Below are positions 3,078 to 17,525 of a stretch of DNA of 64,000 nt, in pieces. Numbering within the stretch: position 1 is the first letter of the stretch; every line of letters starts with the position of its first letter. The notes beneath the pieces are model-generated. The model saw only the letters and a list, made by a program, of their open reading frames with translations, made no database searches and was not told the origin of the DNA. The stretch lies in the NCBI RefSeq assembly GCF_053078305.1, contig NZ_CP166879.1; one strand, written 5' to 3'. The position numbers and the translations under genes were made by a program.

Positions 3078-5597
3078 TTAAAAATCAGCCTGATTCGGGA
3101 ACAGTTTTTGCCAGATAACTGAAACGTATTTTGCCTGGTAACGCGCATCGTGCAGGGCATTATGGCGTTCACCCTCAAATGTGATGACGTTGCGGGCATC
3201 GAAATCCATCACCAGTCCCAGGGCAACAATCGTTCTTACATCACGATCGTTGTAGTGACGCCACGGGCAGGGGATTTCTTGTCGTTTATATGAACGGCTT
3301 AAAATTACGTTGTCGAAGTTGGCTCCATTTCCCCAGACCTGAACAAAAAACTCACCGGAGTTTTCGTCTATAAATTCCCGTAATTGTAAAAGCGCATCAT
3401 CAAGCGGTATTCGATCAGCTAAAATGGCGGCACGGGCTTCGCCAGAGCGTTGAAGCCACCATTCGATGGTGCTTATGTCTACAGTGCCACCACATGTATC
3501 CATATCAATTATTTTGCTGAATTCTGGCCCCAGTTCTCCGGTTTGCGGATCGAAAAAGACTGCGCCTATTGAGGCTATTGGTGCGTCAGGATTTTTGCCC
3601 ATCGTTTCAAGGTCAATCATCAGGTGATCCCACATTCTGCTGGTGGATGTGCTTTCACGATGACCGTTCACCTTAATTAAGGGATTTGCTGTCTCGCCTG
3701 TTTCATTATTGCCATTGGCATGTTGATCGCCTTCGGTGCACTCCTTGTTCGGGTGTCCGGCACTTTCCATTTCCTCCAGATCTTTTTCCCGGGCTTCATC
3801 CTGGCTTTCTTCGTTGAATGTCTCCTGGTATGTTGCGTCGCCCATCACCGCGCCACAGTCAGGACAGTTGCCGCCACCGCTCTGACCGCAGGCGGTGCAG
3901 ACTTTTTCCTCTTCCTGTTGCGCTACTGGTTCGGATTGTTTCGTTTCTGGCTCGTCTTGTAACGCATTTTGGCTGTTTTGTTCTGCTTTCTGGTCGTTCT
4001 GTTCCGTTTCTTGCTGGTTCTGGTTCACAGAATCGCAGGTTTCAATCCCCTTAACCCATTTCGAATCATTCGGGTCGCTAATCCCTTCAACAAACTCACC
4101 ACGGGAAGCGGCAAGCAATTTGTCGGCATCTGGTCGACTGATGTCTGCTGCCTCCATAATTTTATTTACTTCTTCAGCAGTAACTTTTACCTGTGACTTG
4201 TCATCCAGCGGCTGCGGGTCCTGATGATGTTCAACTGTATCCGCTGCCATTGTTTCAGCCGTTGCCTGTTCATCTGCCATTGCGCCAGATGGCTGCGGTT
4301 TTTCTTCATCATCCTGTTTTCCTTCTTTTGTTACACGCTGAGGGATAGGGGCAGAGGAGCGACCGCAGGCAATATCCACGATTTCCGGATCAGGGTTGGC
4401 ATGATCGGTTTCGGTCAGTACTTTGTTCAGATATTCGGTAACACGGTGGGGAGTAGCCTCGATACCAATTGGTGCTTCTTTCACGGACGCAACTACTATC
4501 GCGCGGGAATAATCCAGGTGACCAGGCATGGCGATGAATTTGTCACGAAAAACAGAAAAGGGCGGCTTATTCTCTGAAACGATTTCTTCAATGCGTTTGG
4601 CGTGTGCCGGATGTGGATTGTAAATATCGATGTCCATTGAACGGGCCAGAACGCCAGCGGCAACGTCACGTTCCACTGACGCATCATCGTGGACAAAACC
4701 TTCACCGCGATCGGTAAGAATTCCTCCGCCAGCATTAGCGCCGGACGGGGTGCGATTGATTTCAGATACGCAATTTCCCTTTGCCCACTCTTTTGTCAAC
4801 AGCCCCTGATCAAGGTAGTCAGTCTTCATCCAGGTGGAAATGAACTTGTCGAATTCTGCCGGGCTGATACGGCGTGTTGTTGCGTGAGTGAATGCCTTTT
4901 CCACCGAATGCGCCAGTCTTCCAAGATGATGGTTTGTCAGCTTATCCAGCTCAGGATGCGAACGTACTGCAGTAAGCAGGCTCTGTATGTTTCCATCTTC
5001 CATATCCATTTCGATGCGGATCACGTCCTTGCGTTGTTCTGGTGTGGCGTGATGTTTGTATTTCTCGTCGAACTCCTGACCAAAGAAGTAGAGGTGCAGG
5101 AAGCGATGGGTAAGACTCAGGGTGGAGACGGGGATTTCACATTCAGGGCAGTCATCGTTGCTGTCCGGGGATTCGCTTTTATCTGCGTTCTCTGTCTGAG
5201 AGTCACTTTGTTCATCGCAGTCACGGCTGACACCTGTAACAGCTTCGCCGCTGGTATTGTCAGTGCTGGCAGGTTTGTCCTGAGCTGAAGGGGAAGGAGC
5301 TATAAATATCATTGTGATACCATCTTCCCCGCCTTTTTCGTAACGGTTGCAGAATTCAGTATCAAACACGCCTTCTGGAGGAAGGTCATTCACAACGGGT
5401 AAATGGACGCGAACAGGTTTTTTAAAGTCGTCCTCGTCATAATCATTATCATCCATTGCGGTAATGCAGCGGGAGATGGCAACAGATAATTTTTTTGCTG
5501 TAGTCCAGTAAAAACCACCTTTAATCCCAAGGCGTTTTCTGACCTTGTCATTTTTTGCTTCGCAATATAGTGCAAAAGTTTCTTTATCAGTGCTCAT
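3078..5597 (-). CDS. Large phage exonuclease with C-terminal DnaQ-like 3'-5' exonuclease domain
   Basis: 839 aa; C-terminus MIDLETMG...FDNVIL...HNALHDARY (DEDDh-like); acidic low-complexity linker and a Cys4 motif CTACG..CPDCG. Confidence 0.6.
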   Translation of the reverse strand: MSTDKETFALYCEAKNDKVRKRLGIKGGFYWTTAKKLSVAISRCITAMDDNDYDEDDFKKPVRVHLPVVNDLPPEGVFDTEFCNRYEKGGEDGITMIFIAPSPSAQDKPASTDNTSGEAVTGVSRDCDEQSDSQTENADKSESPDSNDDCPECEIPVSTLSLTHRFLHLYFFGQEFDEKYKHHATPEQRKDVIRIEMDMEDGNIQSLLTAVRSHPELDKLTNHHLGRLAHSVEKAFTHATTRRISPAEFDKFISTWMKTDYLDQGLLTKEWAKGNCVSEINRTPSGANAGGGILTDRGEGFVHDDASVERDVAAGVLARSMDIDIYNPHPAHAKRIEEIVSENKPPFSVFRDKFIAMPGHLDYSRAIVVASVKEAPIGIEATPHRVTEYLNKVLTETDHANPDPEIVDIACGRSSAPIPQRVTKEGKQDDEEKPQPSGAMADEQATAETMAADTVEHHQDPQPLDDKSQVKVTAEEVNKIMEAADISRPDADKLLAASRGEFVEGISDPNDSKWVKGIETCDSVNQNQQETEQNDQKAEQNSQNALQDEPETKQSEPVAQQEEEKVCTACGQSGGGNCPDCGAVMGDATYQETFNEESQDEAREKDLEEMESAGHPNKECTEGDQHANGNNETGETANPLIKVNGHRESTSTSRMWDHLMIDLETMGKNPDAPIASIGAVFFDPQTGELGPEFSKIIDMDTCGGTVDISTIEWWLQRSGEARAAILADRIPLDDALLQLREFIDENSGEFFVQVWGNGANFDNVILSRSYKRQEIPCPWRHYNDRDVRTIVALGLVMDFDARNVITFEGERHNALHDARYQAKYVSVIWQKLFPNQADF

Positions 5598-12080: not shown

Positions 12081-12538
12081 GAGAGGTTAACTATGAGGCG
12101 CTTCGTGAGGCAGCACAAAACTATCAGTCGACGCTGGCGTGGTATCAGGCTATCCCGGACAGCCCAAATGCTGAACGGGATTGTGATGCGGCTCTTGCTG
12201 CGTTTAAGCGTCACATCCGTCATCGGGAAGCGGATATTATCGCTGATTTGCTGGATGGACTGGAAGAAGCAAAATCACAACTCAACGAGCAACGTGAGTA
12301 TTACGAAGGTGTTATCTCGGATGGGAGTAAGCGCATTGCTGAACTGGAAGCGCGGGAAGTTCAATTACCGACTCGCTACGACCTTCGATATGGACACCCG
12401 ATAAATGCAGATGAGCGACAAGTCATGATACCTAAAGAAAATGGCAGTTGGCTTTACCTGATTGACCTAGAACACGCATTACGCGTCGCTGGCATTCGCA
12501 TCAAAGGAGAGGAGCATGGAAATAAAACCAGAGGATGA
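12077..12538 (+). CDS. Hypothetical phage protein
   Basis: 153 aa, start overlaps previous stop. Confidence 0.45.
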   Translation: MREVNYEALREAAQNYQSTLAWYQAIPDSPNAERDCDAALAAFKRHIRHREADIIADLLDGLEEAKSQLNEQREYYEGVISDGSKRIAELEAREVQLPTRYDLRYGHPINADERQVMIPKENGSWLYLIDLEHALRVAGIRIKGEEHGNKTRG

Positions 12539-12872
12539 GTTAAGCAATATCGTTTTATTTCCGGTAAAAGAGGATGACCCTCGTAATCAGGTTAATTTTC
12601 TTTATGAGCCATCGGAAAGACCATATTGTCATCACGCCTCTGTTCGGGTTGACGAAAAAGAGCGTCAGGTCCGCTGTAAAATCTGCGGTGCAGTTGTGGA
12701 GCCGTTTGACTGGATGCTCTCTGTGGCGAAAAGAGAAACCAGACTGGCAGATGATGTAAGGCTATTGCACCAGGAGGAACAGGAAAGGCGGAAAAATATA
12801 GAAAAGTTAATTCAGATTGAGCGTAACGCGAAAGCGCGGATACGCAGGGCGACAAAATCCAGAACTGAATAA
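12516..12872 (+). CDS. Hypothetical protein with Cys/His zinc-ribbon-like motif
   Basis: 118 aa; CHH...CKICG. Confidence 0.45.
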   Translation: MEIKPEDELSNIVLFPVKEDDPRNQVNFLYEPSERPYCHHASVRVDEKERQVRCKICGAVVEPFDWMLSVAKRETRLADDVRLLHQEEQERRKNIEKLIQIERNAKARIRRATKSRTE

Positions 12873-12922
12873 ATAAATTTAGCGCTGTAAATAAAATCTA
12901 ATCCTTAACTGGAGGTATATTT

Positions 12923-13135
12923 ATGTTAAATACACAGAAATCCATTAATGCGGAAAAATATAACGAGTGGGCAAGAAAATTCTCTGAGCAGATTTTTAAA
13001 ATTACTGGCGATGAGAATGCGGCAAAAAATGAATTAGAACCGTGGACGCCTGAAGGAGCCGACCCAAATTATTGCTGGAGGGAGGTTGATCCAGTTGATG
13101 CTGCAAATGAAGCTATGAGTTATCACAACGATTAA
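12923..13135 (+). CDS. Hypothetical protein
   Basis: 70 aa, GGAGG RBS. Confidence 0.35.
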   Translation: MLNTQKSINAEKYNEWARKFSEQIFKITGDENAAKNELEPWTPEGADPNYCWREVDPVDAANEAMSYHND

Positions 13136-13167
13136 TGTCAGGAGGCCGCCCGAAAGGGCGGTAATGA

Positions 13168-13386
13168 ATGGTCACATTATTTAGAAAAAAATATCCGCGA
13201 AAGAGTAGAACAACAGAATTTCTGTTTCTCATTCTGTTTATCGTGTTGATGATACCGATATCCCCGTTAATCCTAGTCTGGATAATCGGAAAAATAATTG
13301 AGCCAGTTATTGAATTGTATAACGACGTGGTATGGGCGTCATTCAACACACTGCACAATAAAATTAATCCGTATAAGGAAAGCTGA
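13168..13386 (+). CDS. Small membrane protein
   Basis: 72 aa with hydrophobic core. Confidence 0.3.
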   Translation: MVTLFRKKYPRKSRTTEFLFLILFIVLMIPISPLILVWIIGKIIEPVIELYNDVVWASFNTLHNKINPYKES

Positions 13387-13387
13387 T

Positions 13388-13753
13388 ATGGCACTGACGA
13401 AAAAACAACGCGCAGAACTGCGCATGAAGTTCGGTGGTCGCTGTGCTTATTGCGGCTGCGAACTTGGCGAAAAGTGGCATGCAGACCATGTAAAACCGGT
13501 CATTCGTTTTGATGGAAATATGCTTCACCAGGAACGTGACGATATATCCAACATGGTTCCGGCATGCCACCCATGCAATCTGCACAAGCATTGCAGTAGT
13601 CTGGAAGATTATCGGCGAATTATCAGTGATGGTCGTCGTGAATTCCTTGCGTCCGGGAAAGGCAAAGCGCTGGTTCGTATGGGATTGGTTGAAATGAAAT
13701 CTGACCCGGTTGTGTTCTGGTTTGAAAAATATCAAGAAGGGGCTACGGCATGA
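13388..13753 (+). CDS. HNH endonuclease
   Basis: CAYCG...HADHVKP...CHPCNLHK; AAGGAAAG RBS. Confidence 0.7.
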
Positions 13754-14094
13754 CGACTTTTACCAGAGAGCAGTTAATAGCTCACGCAGAGGAGACTATT
13801 GAAGCACAGAGACTGTGCATACCGGGCACAATCGACCATGACATCATCCGCACATATAAGATGGATATTGCTGTTCTGGAAATCGCACTGGTATCGCTGG
13901 CAGCAGAGCCAGCCGGTAAATTGCATGAATACAAACCAGTGGGATATCAGCGTCTGGTCGATGAGTTAACCATGCTGGTAAAGCAGTTAACCTGGCAACT
14001 GAGGAAAGCGAAGCCAGACTGCAAATTACCGGATAAGGCGATGAGTTATCTGGAGCGGAACGGACTGATAAGCGTGGAGGATATTTTACGATGA
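13750..14094 (+). CDS. Hypothetical phage protein
   Basis: 114 aa, translationally coupled. Confidence 0.45.
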
Positions 14095-14385
14095 CCTGGC
14101 CTGAAGCATTAACAACGGTAGGAATTGCGATGGCGGTGGCGCTGGTGGTGTATTCGATTTGCCGCTGGGGATAAAAACGGTTTGCGGGAAAAGGAGAGTT
14201 AAGTAGAATTGCAGCGGGTGCTTGAGGCTATCTGTCTCAGGCATGAACACCAAAAGGCAGATAGAGAAAAGCCCCAGTTAACATTACGCGTCCGGCAAGA
14301 CGCTTAACATTAATCTGAGGCTCAATCTGTGAACGGCAAATCTAGGTTAGCCTCTTACGCGCCGAAAGGCAAGGAGAAGCAGGCT

Positions 14386-14541
14386 ATGAAGCAGCAAAAG
14401 GCGATGTTAGTCGCCCTGATCGTCATCTGTATTACCGTCATTGTGACGGCACTGGTAACGAGGAAAGACCTCTGCGAGGTACGAATCCGAACCGGCCAGA
14501 CGGAGGTCGCTGTCTTCACAGCTTACGAACCTGAGGAGTAA
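14386..14541 (+). CDS. hok: Hok/Gef-family type I toxin
   Basis: 51 aa MKQQKAMLVALIVICITVIVTALVTRKDLCEVRIRTGQTEVAVFTAYEPEE; upstream in-frame extension resembles mok. Confidence 0.7.
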   Translation: MKQQKAMLVALIVICITVIVTALVTRKDLCEVRIRTGQTEVAVFTAYEPEE

Positions 14542-14643: not shown

Positions 14644-14961
14644 TCAGGATATTACCTGGATCCCGTTTTTCTCGACAACTGAAAGAAGCCGAAGAGCTGC
14701 ACCTCCCGGGCGTTTCACTCCTCGTTCCCAGTCTGATATCAGGTTTTTACTGACGTTGAGGTATCTGGCAAAAACAGGTTGAGACAGATGCTCTCGTTCT
14801 CGCAGTGCACGGATCCTTTCTGGAGACATTACCGGCGCAGGCTGAAGACAAGTTTCATCGAATTCGCGCATAGTTTGTTTTGTGATTGCACCGATATCAT
14901 GGAGTGACTCCATCATTTCATGTACAGATGCAAGTGCATCACTGCGGTAATTTTTACTCAT
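14644..14961 (-). CDS. HTH (XRE-type) antitoxin of type II TA pair
   Basis: 105 aa, C-terminal HTH; overlaps upstream toxin gene by 8 nt. Confidence 0.65.
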   Translation of the reverse strand: MSKNYRSDALASVHEMMESLHDIGAITKQTMREFDETCLQPAPVMSPERIRALREREHLSQPVFARYLNVSKNLISDWERGVKRPGGAALRLLSVVEKNGIQVIS

Positions 14962-15325
14962 TGGGTACCTCCGTGAACTGGCCTTGTTGAATCAATTGTG
15001 CCAGCTGTTCATCAGTAAGATTGAGGACATGGGGAGCGGCTTTTCGAAAAGCATTTTCCTCTATAGCAGTGATATTCTCTCGTTCATTCTTTGCGTATGC
15101 GTAGATGAAAAAGGCTTTTTCTGCAACGCGGTAAAAAATTATTGTCCGGTAACCGCCTGATTTTCCGCCACCACTTCGGGCTAATCTTTGTTTAATGACA
15201 CCACTACCCAAATTTGCGGATATGATCCCCTTATCGGCCAGCTCCACGATTTTGCGCAGCGATTTATCGGAAATCCGATGTTTTCGGGCGAAACGTTCAA
15301 ACCAGGCGTTTTTGAAAATTCGCAT
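14954..15325 (-). CDS. RelE/ParE-superfamily toxin (HigB-like)
   Basis: 123 aa; ...GGYRTIIFYR...FIYAYAKNEREN...; toxin-first gene order. Confidence 0.65.
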   Translation of the reverse strand: MRIFKNAWFERFARKHRISDKSLRKIVELADKGIISANLGSGVIKQRLARSGGGKSGGYRTIIFYRVAEKAFFIYAYAKNERENITAIEENAFRKAAPHVLNLTDEQLAQLIQQGQFTEVPNE

Positions 15326-16103: not shown

Positions 16104-17153
16104 GTGCGGGTATTACTTCGACCTGTTCTGGTACCGGAACTCGGGATGGTGCTCCTAAAGCCGGGCCGTGAATCAATGTCAGCATTCCATAACGGCAGAA
16201 TATTGGTGGAGCCGGAACCGAAAAACATGCGCGGTCTGCCGTCCGGAGTCGTTCCTGCCGTTCGACAGCCGCTGGCAGAGGATAAAACATTACTGCCATT
16301 TTTCAGCAACGAACGGGTGATTCGTGCTGCGGGTGGCGCTGGTGCACTGTCTGACTGGTTATTACGTCACGTGAAATCCTGCCAGTGGCCACACGGTGAT
16401 TATCATCACAGCGAAACTGTCATTCACCGTTACGGTACCGGCGCGATGGTGTTGTGCTGGCACTGCGACAACCAGCTGCGCGACCAGACATCAGAATCAC
16501 TCGATCAACTTGCTCAGCAGAATCTGGTTGCCTGGATGATTGACGTTATCCGTCACGCAATAAGCAGTACGCAGGAGAGGGAGTTATCGCTGGCCGAATT
16601 ATCCTGGTGGGCGGCCTGCAATCAGGTGGTGGATGCACTACCTGAGGCAGTAGCGCGTCGTTCGCTGGGATTACCAGCGGAAAAAATCCGCTCCGTATAC
16701 CGTGAGAGTGACATCGTACCGGGAGAACAGACAGCCATCAGCATACTGAAGCAGCGCACAAAAAATATTGCGCTGCCACTTCACGTCCACCAGCAACAAA
16801 ATCCACCACAGAAAAAAACGGTTGTCAGTATCGCCGTTGATCCGGAGTCTCCTGAATCGTTCATGAGGCGGCCTAAACGTCGCCGTTGGGTTAATGAGAA
16901 ATACACGCGCTGGGTAAAGACACAGCCGTGTGCGTGTTGTGGTAAGCCTGCTGACGATCCGCATCACCTGATTGGTCATGGTCAGGGGGGAATGGGGACA
17001 AAGGCCCACGATATTTTCACGCTACCGTTGTGCCGGGAGCACCACAACGAACTTCATGCAGACCCGCTGGAGTTTGAGAAAAAGTACGGCTCTCAGATTG
17101 AGTTAATTTTTCGTTTTCTTGATCACGCCTTTGCGACTGGCGTGCTCGGGTAA
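16104..17153 (+). CDS. DUF968-like phage protein with C-terminal HNH-like Cys/His cluster
   Basis: C-terminus CACCGKP..DPHH...LCREHHNELH. Confidence 0.6.
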   Translation: MRVLLRPVLVPELGMVLLKPGRESMSAFHNGRILVEPEPKNMRGLPSGVVPAVRQPLAEDKTLLPFFSNERVIRAAGGAGALSDWLLRHVKSCQWPHGDYHHSETVIHRYGTGAMVLCWHCDNQLRDQTSESLDQLAQQNLVAWMIDVIRHAISSTQERELSLAELSWWAACNQVVDALPEAVARRSLGLPAEKIRSVYRESDIVPGEQTAISILKQRTKNIALPLHVHQQQNPPQKKTVVSIAVDPESPESFMRRPKRRRWVNEKYTRWVKTQPCACCGKPADDPHHLIGHGQGGMGTKAHDIFTLPLCREHHNELHADPLEFEKKYGSQIELIFRFLDHAFATGVLG

Positions 17154-17165
17154 AAGAGGTGACTG

Positions 17166-17525
17166 ATGCTCATAGATTTGGTTTTACCTTACCCGCCGAC
17201 GGTGAACACTTACTGGCGACGCCGTGGCAGCACATATTTTGTATCAAAAGCAGGGGAGCGTTATCGCCGGGCAGTGGCACTTATTGTTCGCCAGCAGCGG
17301 CTGAAATTAAGCCTGTCCGGACGGCTGGCAATAAAAATTATTGCAGAGCCACCGGATAAGCGTCGTCGTGACCTGGACAATATTCTGAAAGCACCGCTGG
17401 ATGCGCTGACGCATGCGGGAGTGCTCATTGATGACGAGCAGTTTGATGAAATCAATATTGTACGTGGTCAGCTTGTTCCTGGTGGTCGGTTGGGTGTGAA
17501 GATTTACAAAATTGAGAGTGAGTGA
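17166..17525 (+). CDS. rusA: RusA Holliday-junction resolvase
   Basis: 119 aa; ...DLDNILKAPLDALTHAGVLIDDEQ... Confidence 0.8.
   Translation: MLIDLVLPYPPTVNTYWRRRGSTYFVSKAGERYRRAVALIVRQQRLKLSLSGRLAIKIIAEPPDKRRRDLDNILKAPLDALTHAGVLIDDEQFDEINIVRGQLVPGGRLGVKIYKIESE

Follow-up and report, generated by a model that had tools for sequence, protein, structure and literature searches.

An intact HNH endonuclease gene in the early region of an Escherichia coli lambdoid prophage

Several small HNH endonucleases of phages have been described with which the present gene can be compared. Ten such phage or prophage proteins are site- and strand-specific nickases with a specificity of 3–7 bp, and a 76-aa HNH domain is sufficient (PMC3592412). 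In the same work zinc-ribbon proteins adjoining phage HNH genes were noted, and Xu and Gupta proposed small HNH-adjacent proteins as specificity subunits (PMC3592412). In the Mob proteins of T4 the HNH domain is accompanied by a separate domain at the C-terminus (PMC2988022); the gene for one of these, MobE, is promoterless, and its product nicks nrdB, the gene next to it, at the 5′ end (PMC2790892). The lactococcal I-HmuI-like HNH genes of Skunavirus cluster by insertion site (PMC12724721), and nuclease genes have been described at exchange boundaries (PMC10448857).

We examined a 64,000-nucleotide window (contig NZ_CP166879.1 of RefSeq assembly GCF_053078305.1), which is an E. coli lambdoid prophage integrated beside rspB. 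Its features around the HNH gene, with those of its left end, are:

1447-2721, (-), int
3078-5597, (-), xis and exonuclease
13168..13386, (+), gene for a DUF4014 small membrane protein of 72 aa (Pfam DUF4014, 4e-25)
13375..13379, (+), Shine-Dalgarno sequence AAGGA, 8 nt 5′ of the HNH ATG and within the 3′ end of the DUF4014 gene
13388..13753, (+), HNH endonuclease CDS, from the ORF reading
13442..13591, (+), HNH core, residues 19-68, from the Pfam match and the residues invariant in the alignment
13750..14094, (+), gene for a 114-aa protein, its ATG overlapping the HNH stop codon (ATGA)

The exonuclease at 3078-5597 has a counterpart annotated as RecE-family in a sister prophage. It is followed by the repressor, cro, YdaT, an O-like gene and a DnaC-like ATPase, and then by DUF1627, a DNA-binding protein, DUF4406, an Ea22-like gene, a 118-aa zinc-ribbon ORF and a 70-aa ORF. 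Next come DUF4014, the HNH gene, the 114-aa ORF, hok, a HigB/HigA-like pair, DUF968, RusA and a Q-like gene, and the order ends with a methylase, tRNAs, lysis genes and terminase. The HNH gene thus stands 3′ of the replication genes and 5′ of the stretch that runs from DUF968 through RusA to the Q-like gene, and the original prediction of an early, nin-like location is borne out. The order of the DUF4014 and HNH genes is reversed in HK225 and BIS08P22.

The HNH gene is tightly embedded among its neighbours. The DUF4014 stop codon lies 1 nt before the HNH ATG, and we found no promoter-like or terminator-like site on the plus strand near the gene. One terminator-like match nearby was set aside, being on the minus strand and within chance expectation, as was a regulatory hairpin in the 5′ region, whose fold was not significant (z = -1.55). 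Because no promoter or terminator was seen nearby on the plus strand, and because of the 1-nt gap on one side and the ATGA overlap on the other, we expect that the gene, having neither of its own, would be read from the delayed-early rightward transcript and that its translation would be coupled to that of the neighbouring genes.

Other small genes of the region may be mentioned. A Hok-family toxin ORF lies at 14329-14541 (+), followed by a convergent pair at 14644-15325 (-) annotated as a RelE/ParE-family toxin with an HTH antitoxin; this pair, between hok and DUF968, is present in the sister prophage (L002) and absent from a related prophage (L001). The DUF968 protein (16104-17153, +) has a C-terminal HNHc_6-like motif below cutoff (E = 7.4e-5), and RusA (17166-17525, +) adjoins it, so that the region encodes a second HNH-like protein together with a junction resolvase. 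The 118-aa ORF (12516-12872, +) gives a weak Zn_Ribbon_TF match, also below cutoff (E = 1.7e-4). It lies two genes 5′ of the HNH gene, inside a block missing from the sister prophage, and the linkage is loose. We rejected it as a partner of the HNH protein: the two are apart in Stx2 phage ArgO145, and a gene, matched by position alone, stands at the corresponding place in the HNH-minus locus L011.

The HNH gene is an ATG-started ORF of 121 aa plus stop. The N-termini of homologs (MALTKKQ) favour the start at 13388 over a longer TTG-started ORF (13298) that overlaps the upstream gene. The protein contains three HNH strings, CAYCG, HADHVKP and CHPCN. It matches Pfam HNH (PF01844) at E = 2.2e-6 and 28.2 bits over residues 19-68, above the cutoff of 21.4, and phrog_2118 ('HNH endonuclease') at E = 8.8e-57 over residues 1-120; 700 homologs were found in the databases. 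In an alignment of 32 sequences, from Escherichia, Salmonella, Klebsiella, Yersinia, Pantoea, Providencia, Comamonas and Aquabacterium and reaching down to 49% identity, C19, C22, H31, D33, H34, N55, C60, C63, N64 and K67 are invariant. C19/C22 and C60/C63 are the zinc ligands, D33-H34 are catalytic, and N55, N64 and K67 have metal or structural roles. The prediction of a full HNH motif in a free-standing 121-aa gene therefore holds, and the search for disrupted catalytic residues, which would have spoken against it, turned up none.

An AlphaFold2 model built from the 32-sequence alignment (mean pLDDT 90.8) has the beta-beta-alpha-metal fold; its top-ranked Foldseek matches are weak (E ~0.03). 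The HNH domain of Cas9 aligns to 82-86 of the 121 residues, so that the protein is essentially a bare HNH domain. Beyond the domain there is a family-specific C-terminal tail, PVVFWFE, and F110 and E113 are invariant. The HNH subtypes diverge most in the C-terminal helices, residues ~70-105. The 5′ third of the gene (13384-13500) is 92-94% nucleotide-identical to alleles whose protein is ~61% identical overall (HK225, L093-L098), an alignment pattern that indicates intragenic mosaicism between HNH subtypes.

Selection on the protein is strongly purifying. Pairwise dN/dS against the window copy (Nei-Gojobori) is 0.02-0.13 over synonymous divergences of 0.04 to >2; one outlying pair at ~0.54 looks like a frame misalignment. 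Of 80 related ORFs, 79 are intact; the remaining one runs off the end of its contig. A 2.9-kb contig of Shigella sonnei (P0002) carries a 194-aa protein annotated as a DUF4014+HNH fusion. This is probably a frameshift or assembly error, since the window has the two genes in different frames with 1 nt between them, and the fusion is a single case.

The HNH protein is already known: it is annotated in RefSeq, in PHROGs and in published Stx phages, and it is 100% identical to the annotated HNH endonuclease (gp11) of ArgO145. Of 5426 complete E. coli genomes, 384 contain the gene-specific interior (13410-13694), and in each E. coli record listed the gene is full length and annotated 'HNH endonuclease'. 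We found no account of the function of this protein in the literature on DUF4014, nin-region HNH genes and ArgO145.

Described HNH nucleases of several kinds resemble the protein in part. The genes of N.phiGamma, Gme HNH 4H9D and GVE2 HNH 5H0O lie beside terminase and cos, whereas the present gene is in the early region. Sequence similarity to them is marginal (E = 0.058), and the C-terminal 50 residues, made up of helices and the PVVFWFE tail, set the present family apart. EcoKMcrA (of the e14 prophage) and Cas9 achieve specificity via large extra domains or a guide RNA, in contrast to the bare domain seen here. A Septu or retron nuclease should match PtuB or TIGR02646 over its full length and have a gene for a PtuA ATPase or a retron RT beside it. 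The PADLOC PtuB models match only the HNH core (best 31.6 bits), and none of the HNH neighbours, among which a PtuA ATPase or retron RT partner was sought, gave a PADLOC match. Septu PtuB, retron HNH and IscB/Cas9 were likewise rejected on NCBIfam scores far below cutoffs; the resemblance is one of HNH cores, and there are no partner genes.

The nin-like location, with an exonuclease and RusA in the same prophage, suits a structure-selective recombination nuclease, akin to NinG/Rap or endonuclease VII, that would trim branched intermediates early in infection. The lambda NinG/Rap protein shares both the nin-region location and an HNH-type core, there is weak Pfam NinG similarity (E = 0.0024), phrog_1035 'endonuclease VII' matches at 2.8e-12, and some homologs carry a precomputed NinG match. 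We nevertheless consider this reading improbable. The match to NinG/Rap (PF05766) reaches 18.2 bits, below the family cutoff of 25.4, and covers profile positions 93-147 of 193; the HNH protein is itself ~60% of the profile length, and a member of its family co-occurs with a true NinG in a Klebsiella prophage (L010). We therefore rejected membership of NinG/Rap.

The gene had also been predicted to act possibly as a homing or packaging-associated nuclease, and the packaging half of this is contradicted by its position. From the end of the HNH gene (13753) to the start of terS (28682) the distance is 14.9 kb, and this interval contains the Q-like and lysis genes. The terminase is of the lambda type (Phage_Nu1 with GpA_ATPase/GpA_nuclease) and has its own endonuclease domain. 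Related prophage L001 carries both the HNH gene and a separate terminase-adjacent gene for a 121-aa HNH protein, and the two proteins are unrelated in sequence (BLASTP E = 0.17 over 11 residues). We looked at members of the family in 11 contexts beyond the close E. coli relatives; in ten of these the gene belongs to an early or replication module, namely:

Comamonas and Pantoea prophages, early-left operons near int
Klebsiella prophage and HK225, nin regions
P22-like phage and ArgO145, ea regions
RB49, directly after DNA ligase
eiAU, between DNA polymerase and helicase
Sasha, between C5 methylase and ParB
Caulobacter phage KcrB, among small early genes

A packaging-associated HNH protein of the HK97 gp74 type, aiding terminase in cos cleavage, would be of similar size (121 aa) and have the same HNH motif, and in one distant lineage (Bas79, 6947 and ZCEC08; 49% identity) the homolog does lie near a terminase gene, 0.76 kb upstream of terL. 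That terL is of the Terminase_3 type and has its own RNaseH-like nuclease domain. HK97 gp74 differs from the present case in being terminase-adjacent, the terminase here being of the lambda gpA type. From the gene position, the terminase type and the lack of similarity to the terminase-adjacent HNH protein, we rejected a packaging cofactor, and regard the gp74-like reading as scarcely credible.

The gene is present or absent among otherwise collinear genomes. The sister prophage L002, at the same rspB site, is the relative that most resembles the whole left half of the window (96.5% identity over 87% of 25 kb). In a blastn comparison of the window with L002 one block is absent:

12275..13749, (+), 1475-bp block absent from sister prophage L002

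The block takes in part of the Ea22-like gene (its 3′ end) and four whole genes: the 118-aa zinc-ribbon ORF, the 70-aa ORF, DUF4014 and the HNH gene. L002 has 148 bp in its place, and on the right the block stops precisely where the ATG of the 114-aa gene (13750) begins. The loss in L002 is therefore that of a multi-gene block and not of the HNH gene alone. Since a sister prophage at the same attachment site lacks the HNH gene, and only 384/5426 E. coli genomes carry it, the gene is dispensable.

Its boundaries were examined in 80 viral contigs with a homolog of 61-100% identity. In most of these loci the edges of the homology block are at 13375-13388 on the left and 13758-13771 on the right, no more than ~15 nt from the HNH start and stop codons. 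Clustering of the 300-nt flanks as DNA gave 44 clusters upstream and 38 downstream. The upstream neighbours belong to 20 protein families, with DUF4014 at 27 of 81 loci, Ea22-like at 22 and the rest scattered, and at least five upstream families occur beside HNH copies that are at least 97.5% identical. The junctions are stereotyped: the upstream gene ends ...GGAG..TGA(n)ATG, a layout that recurs in ~40 other contexts, and the HNH gene ends ...GAAGGGGCTACGGC-ATGA-CCACT....

The neighbours behave similarly. In 933W and many O157 genomes the DUF4014 gene is followed by other genes, in many genomes the 114-aa gene is preceded by genes other than HNH, and in the few comparisons made the DUF4014 and 114-aa genes were exchanged independently too. 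Within the 114-aa gene, ~70-80 nt at 13969-14038 are shared by the window and ArgO145 and missing from L001 (near 21060-21069), whose counterpart has a different C-terminus at an unchanged ORF length (345 nt). The claim that such genes are mobile in their own right is thus half sustained: the HNH gene is exchanged as a single-gene unit, but its non-nuclease neighbours, in the comparisons made, are exchanged likewise, so that the nuclease need not be the cause. As judged from these alignments, the HNH gene is a single-gene mosaic unit in a region where the compared neighbours are such units as well. Comparative papers on HK97/HK022 and HK620 reportedly give a picture of gene-boundary linkers in lambdoid phages, with which the cassette pattern here agrees.

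A further junction element lies just 5′ of the DUF4014 gene:

13145..13162, (+), intergenic GNRA hairpin GCCGCCC-GAAA-GGGCGGU (fold z = -3.56)

Copies of this hairpin bracket a 1046-bp insertion in ArgO145 (L005, near 3264 and 4311), and further copies are found at cassette junctions in two HNH-minus loci (L004 928-953, L011 1539-1569). The hairpin may act as a linker for recombination or else bear on RNA stability.

These observations are best accounted for, we think, by an accessory early nickase shuffled among phages as a cassette, an account that we hold with about even confidence. The protein is an intact single-domain HNH nuclease, zinc-stabilised and of the beta-beta-alpha-metal type. 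By analogy with the small phage HNH proteins it would be made early in lytic growth and would most likely nick or cut double-stranded DNA in a divalent-metal-dependent manner, with a sequence preference of a few bp. We infer the nicking activity, the low specificity and the biological role. The gene would serve phage early DNA metabolism as a dispensable accessory; the predicted nicks or breaks would probably feed phage recombination and replication, or damage unprotected rival DNA, both roles being suggested by the genomic context. The one-gene cassette would spread by recombination at short stereotyped junctions (the Shine-Dalgarno sequence and the stop/start overlap), which delimit the compared neighbours as well.

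The remaining half of the earlier claim, homing, finds no positive support: the flanks are variable and no empty site was seen. As query for an empty site we used a synthetic join of the DUF4014 flank and the 114-aa-gene flank, and among 60 rows sampled across 1240 matching E. coli records none showed an empty DUF4014/114-aa junction. In that sample the slot is always filled, by HNH or by other genes (an 87-aa + 55-aa pair, L0066-like, or a DUF551 gene). Two HNH-minus loci, L011 (2715-3156) and L004 (2110-2551), hold the 87-aa and 55-aa genes, in which 22 nt from the start and 58 nt from the end of the HNH gene survive. In both loci the 55-aa ORF is a chimera in which an MTTITKE...LASLEAEP module is fused to the HNH tail. 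On its sequence, this filling looks like replacement by recombination inside short shared sequences.

The gene downstream of HNH deserves description on its own account. Its product has a conserved N-terminal module (MTTxTKE...LA(S/A)LEAEPVA) and a highly variable C-terminus that is often DUF551-like. A module gene lies directly 3′ of the HNH gene in 25 of 38 dereplicated contexts, and in 3 more it follows one small gene further on, within ~300 nt; the ATGA overlap with the downstream gene is found in nearly all contexts. An HMM trained on the downstream proteins finds about one module gene per 10-kb locus, a background count that is a lower bound, and exactly one (the 114-aa gene) in the 64-kb window. 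Some HNH alleles themselves begin MTTITKKQ, and the 5′ leader ATGACCACTATTACCAAAGAG recurs at junctions. Most simply, the leader ATGACCACTATTACCAAAGAG would serve as a linker for recombination, though the HNH protein might instead target the module gene or work with its product.

A targeting relationship would be expected of a free-standing homing nickase like MobE, which would nick HNH-minus relatives close to where it is itself inserted, for instance where the genes of the downstream MTTITKE family begin, whereupon repair would copy the gene with adjacent DNA. Several features of the locus are in keeping with this. The gene is present or absent between near-identical prophages, and its homologs are scattered over unrelated phage types at 40-50% identity. 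Like the T4 mobE gene, whose product targets the 5′ end of a neighbour (PMC2790892), it is a promoterless, operon-embedded HNH gene of sporadic occurrence with a recurrent neighbour, the module family being so often directly 3′ though present about once per locus. Unlike the Mob proteins, the present one lacks a separate DNA-binding domain: no second Pfam domain was found in it, and most of its length is taken up by the part that aligns to the Cas9 domain. Nor are the upstream flanks conserved; with ~20 upstream gene families beside near-identical copies and with the flank clusters given above, a constant insertion site with homologous flanks is lacking, in contrast to the Skunavirus HNH genes (PMC12724721). 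In the one candidate target region compared, the first 150 nt of the downstream gene, there are 0-1 mismatches across three HNH-plus and three HNH-minus loci, and hence no MobE-style immunity polymorphism in that stretch across these six loci. Together with the failure to see an empty junction and the similar shuffling of the non-nuclease neighbours compared, this makes homing of the MobE kind unlikely in our view, if still deserving of some weight. On present sequence comparisons classical site-specific homing is unsupported, and the apparent mobility matches general junction-mediated cassette exchange rather than demonstrated homing, though some homing-like advantage stimulated by nicking is conceivable.

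A partner relationship would be expected of a two-component nuclease, in which the downstream protein would bind the HNH protein as a specificity or regulatory subunit. The proposal of Xu and Gupta for small HNH-adjacent proteins (PMC3592412) lends itself to this, as do the ATGA overlap, the frequent adjacency and the architecture of a conserved N-terminal module with a variable C-terminus. Against this, no module neighbour was found beside the distant homologs of Comamonas, Pantoea, RB49, eiAU, KcrB, Sasha and Bas79, module genes are common without HNH, and near-identical HNH genes pair with very different module proteins. The chance that the two proteins form one enzyme appears slim. Drawing the targeting and partner ideas together, the HNH protein might be a MobE-like nickase of minimal size, or else supply the catalytic half of an enzyme in two parts, preferring the ATGACCACTATTACCAAAGAG (MTTITKE) leader of EaA/DUF551-type genes, with its breaks helping to drive the shuffling; this we would put forward as a long shot.

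The reading as an accessory early nickase carried by a shuffled cassette has difficulties of its own. One gene family lies beside HNH more often than plain cassette shuffling would lead one to expect, unless the shared 5′ leader is the recombination site, and a sporadic spread over unrelated phages is also expected of a selfish endonuclease. RB49-like phages bear on both points of view. A 42%-identical homolog stands after DNA ligase in all 59 of 59 RB49-like (Krischvirus) records (L014 2950-3423 in RB49), and sequence variability begins just 3′ of it, which may be compared with the nuclease genes described at exchange boundaries (PMC10448857) and favours homing to that extent. The retention in these phages fits either a useful function in DNA metabolism or a fixed selfish element at an exchange boundary.

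The HNH gene is an ordinary one and carries little weight as a discovery. It is settled that the gene is intact and under purifying selection, and that it is not a phage HNH gene of the packaging type. Its recurrent position 5′ of one variable gene family, if it reflects targeting by the nuclease, would link the enzyme to lambdoid mosaicism. Were that so, HNH breaks at the MTTITKE leader would help to drive the single-gene shuffling of the ea and nin regions in lambdoid and P22-like phages.
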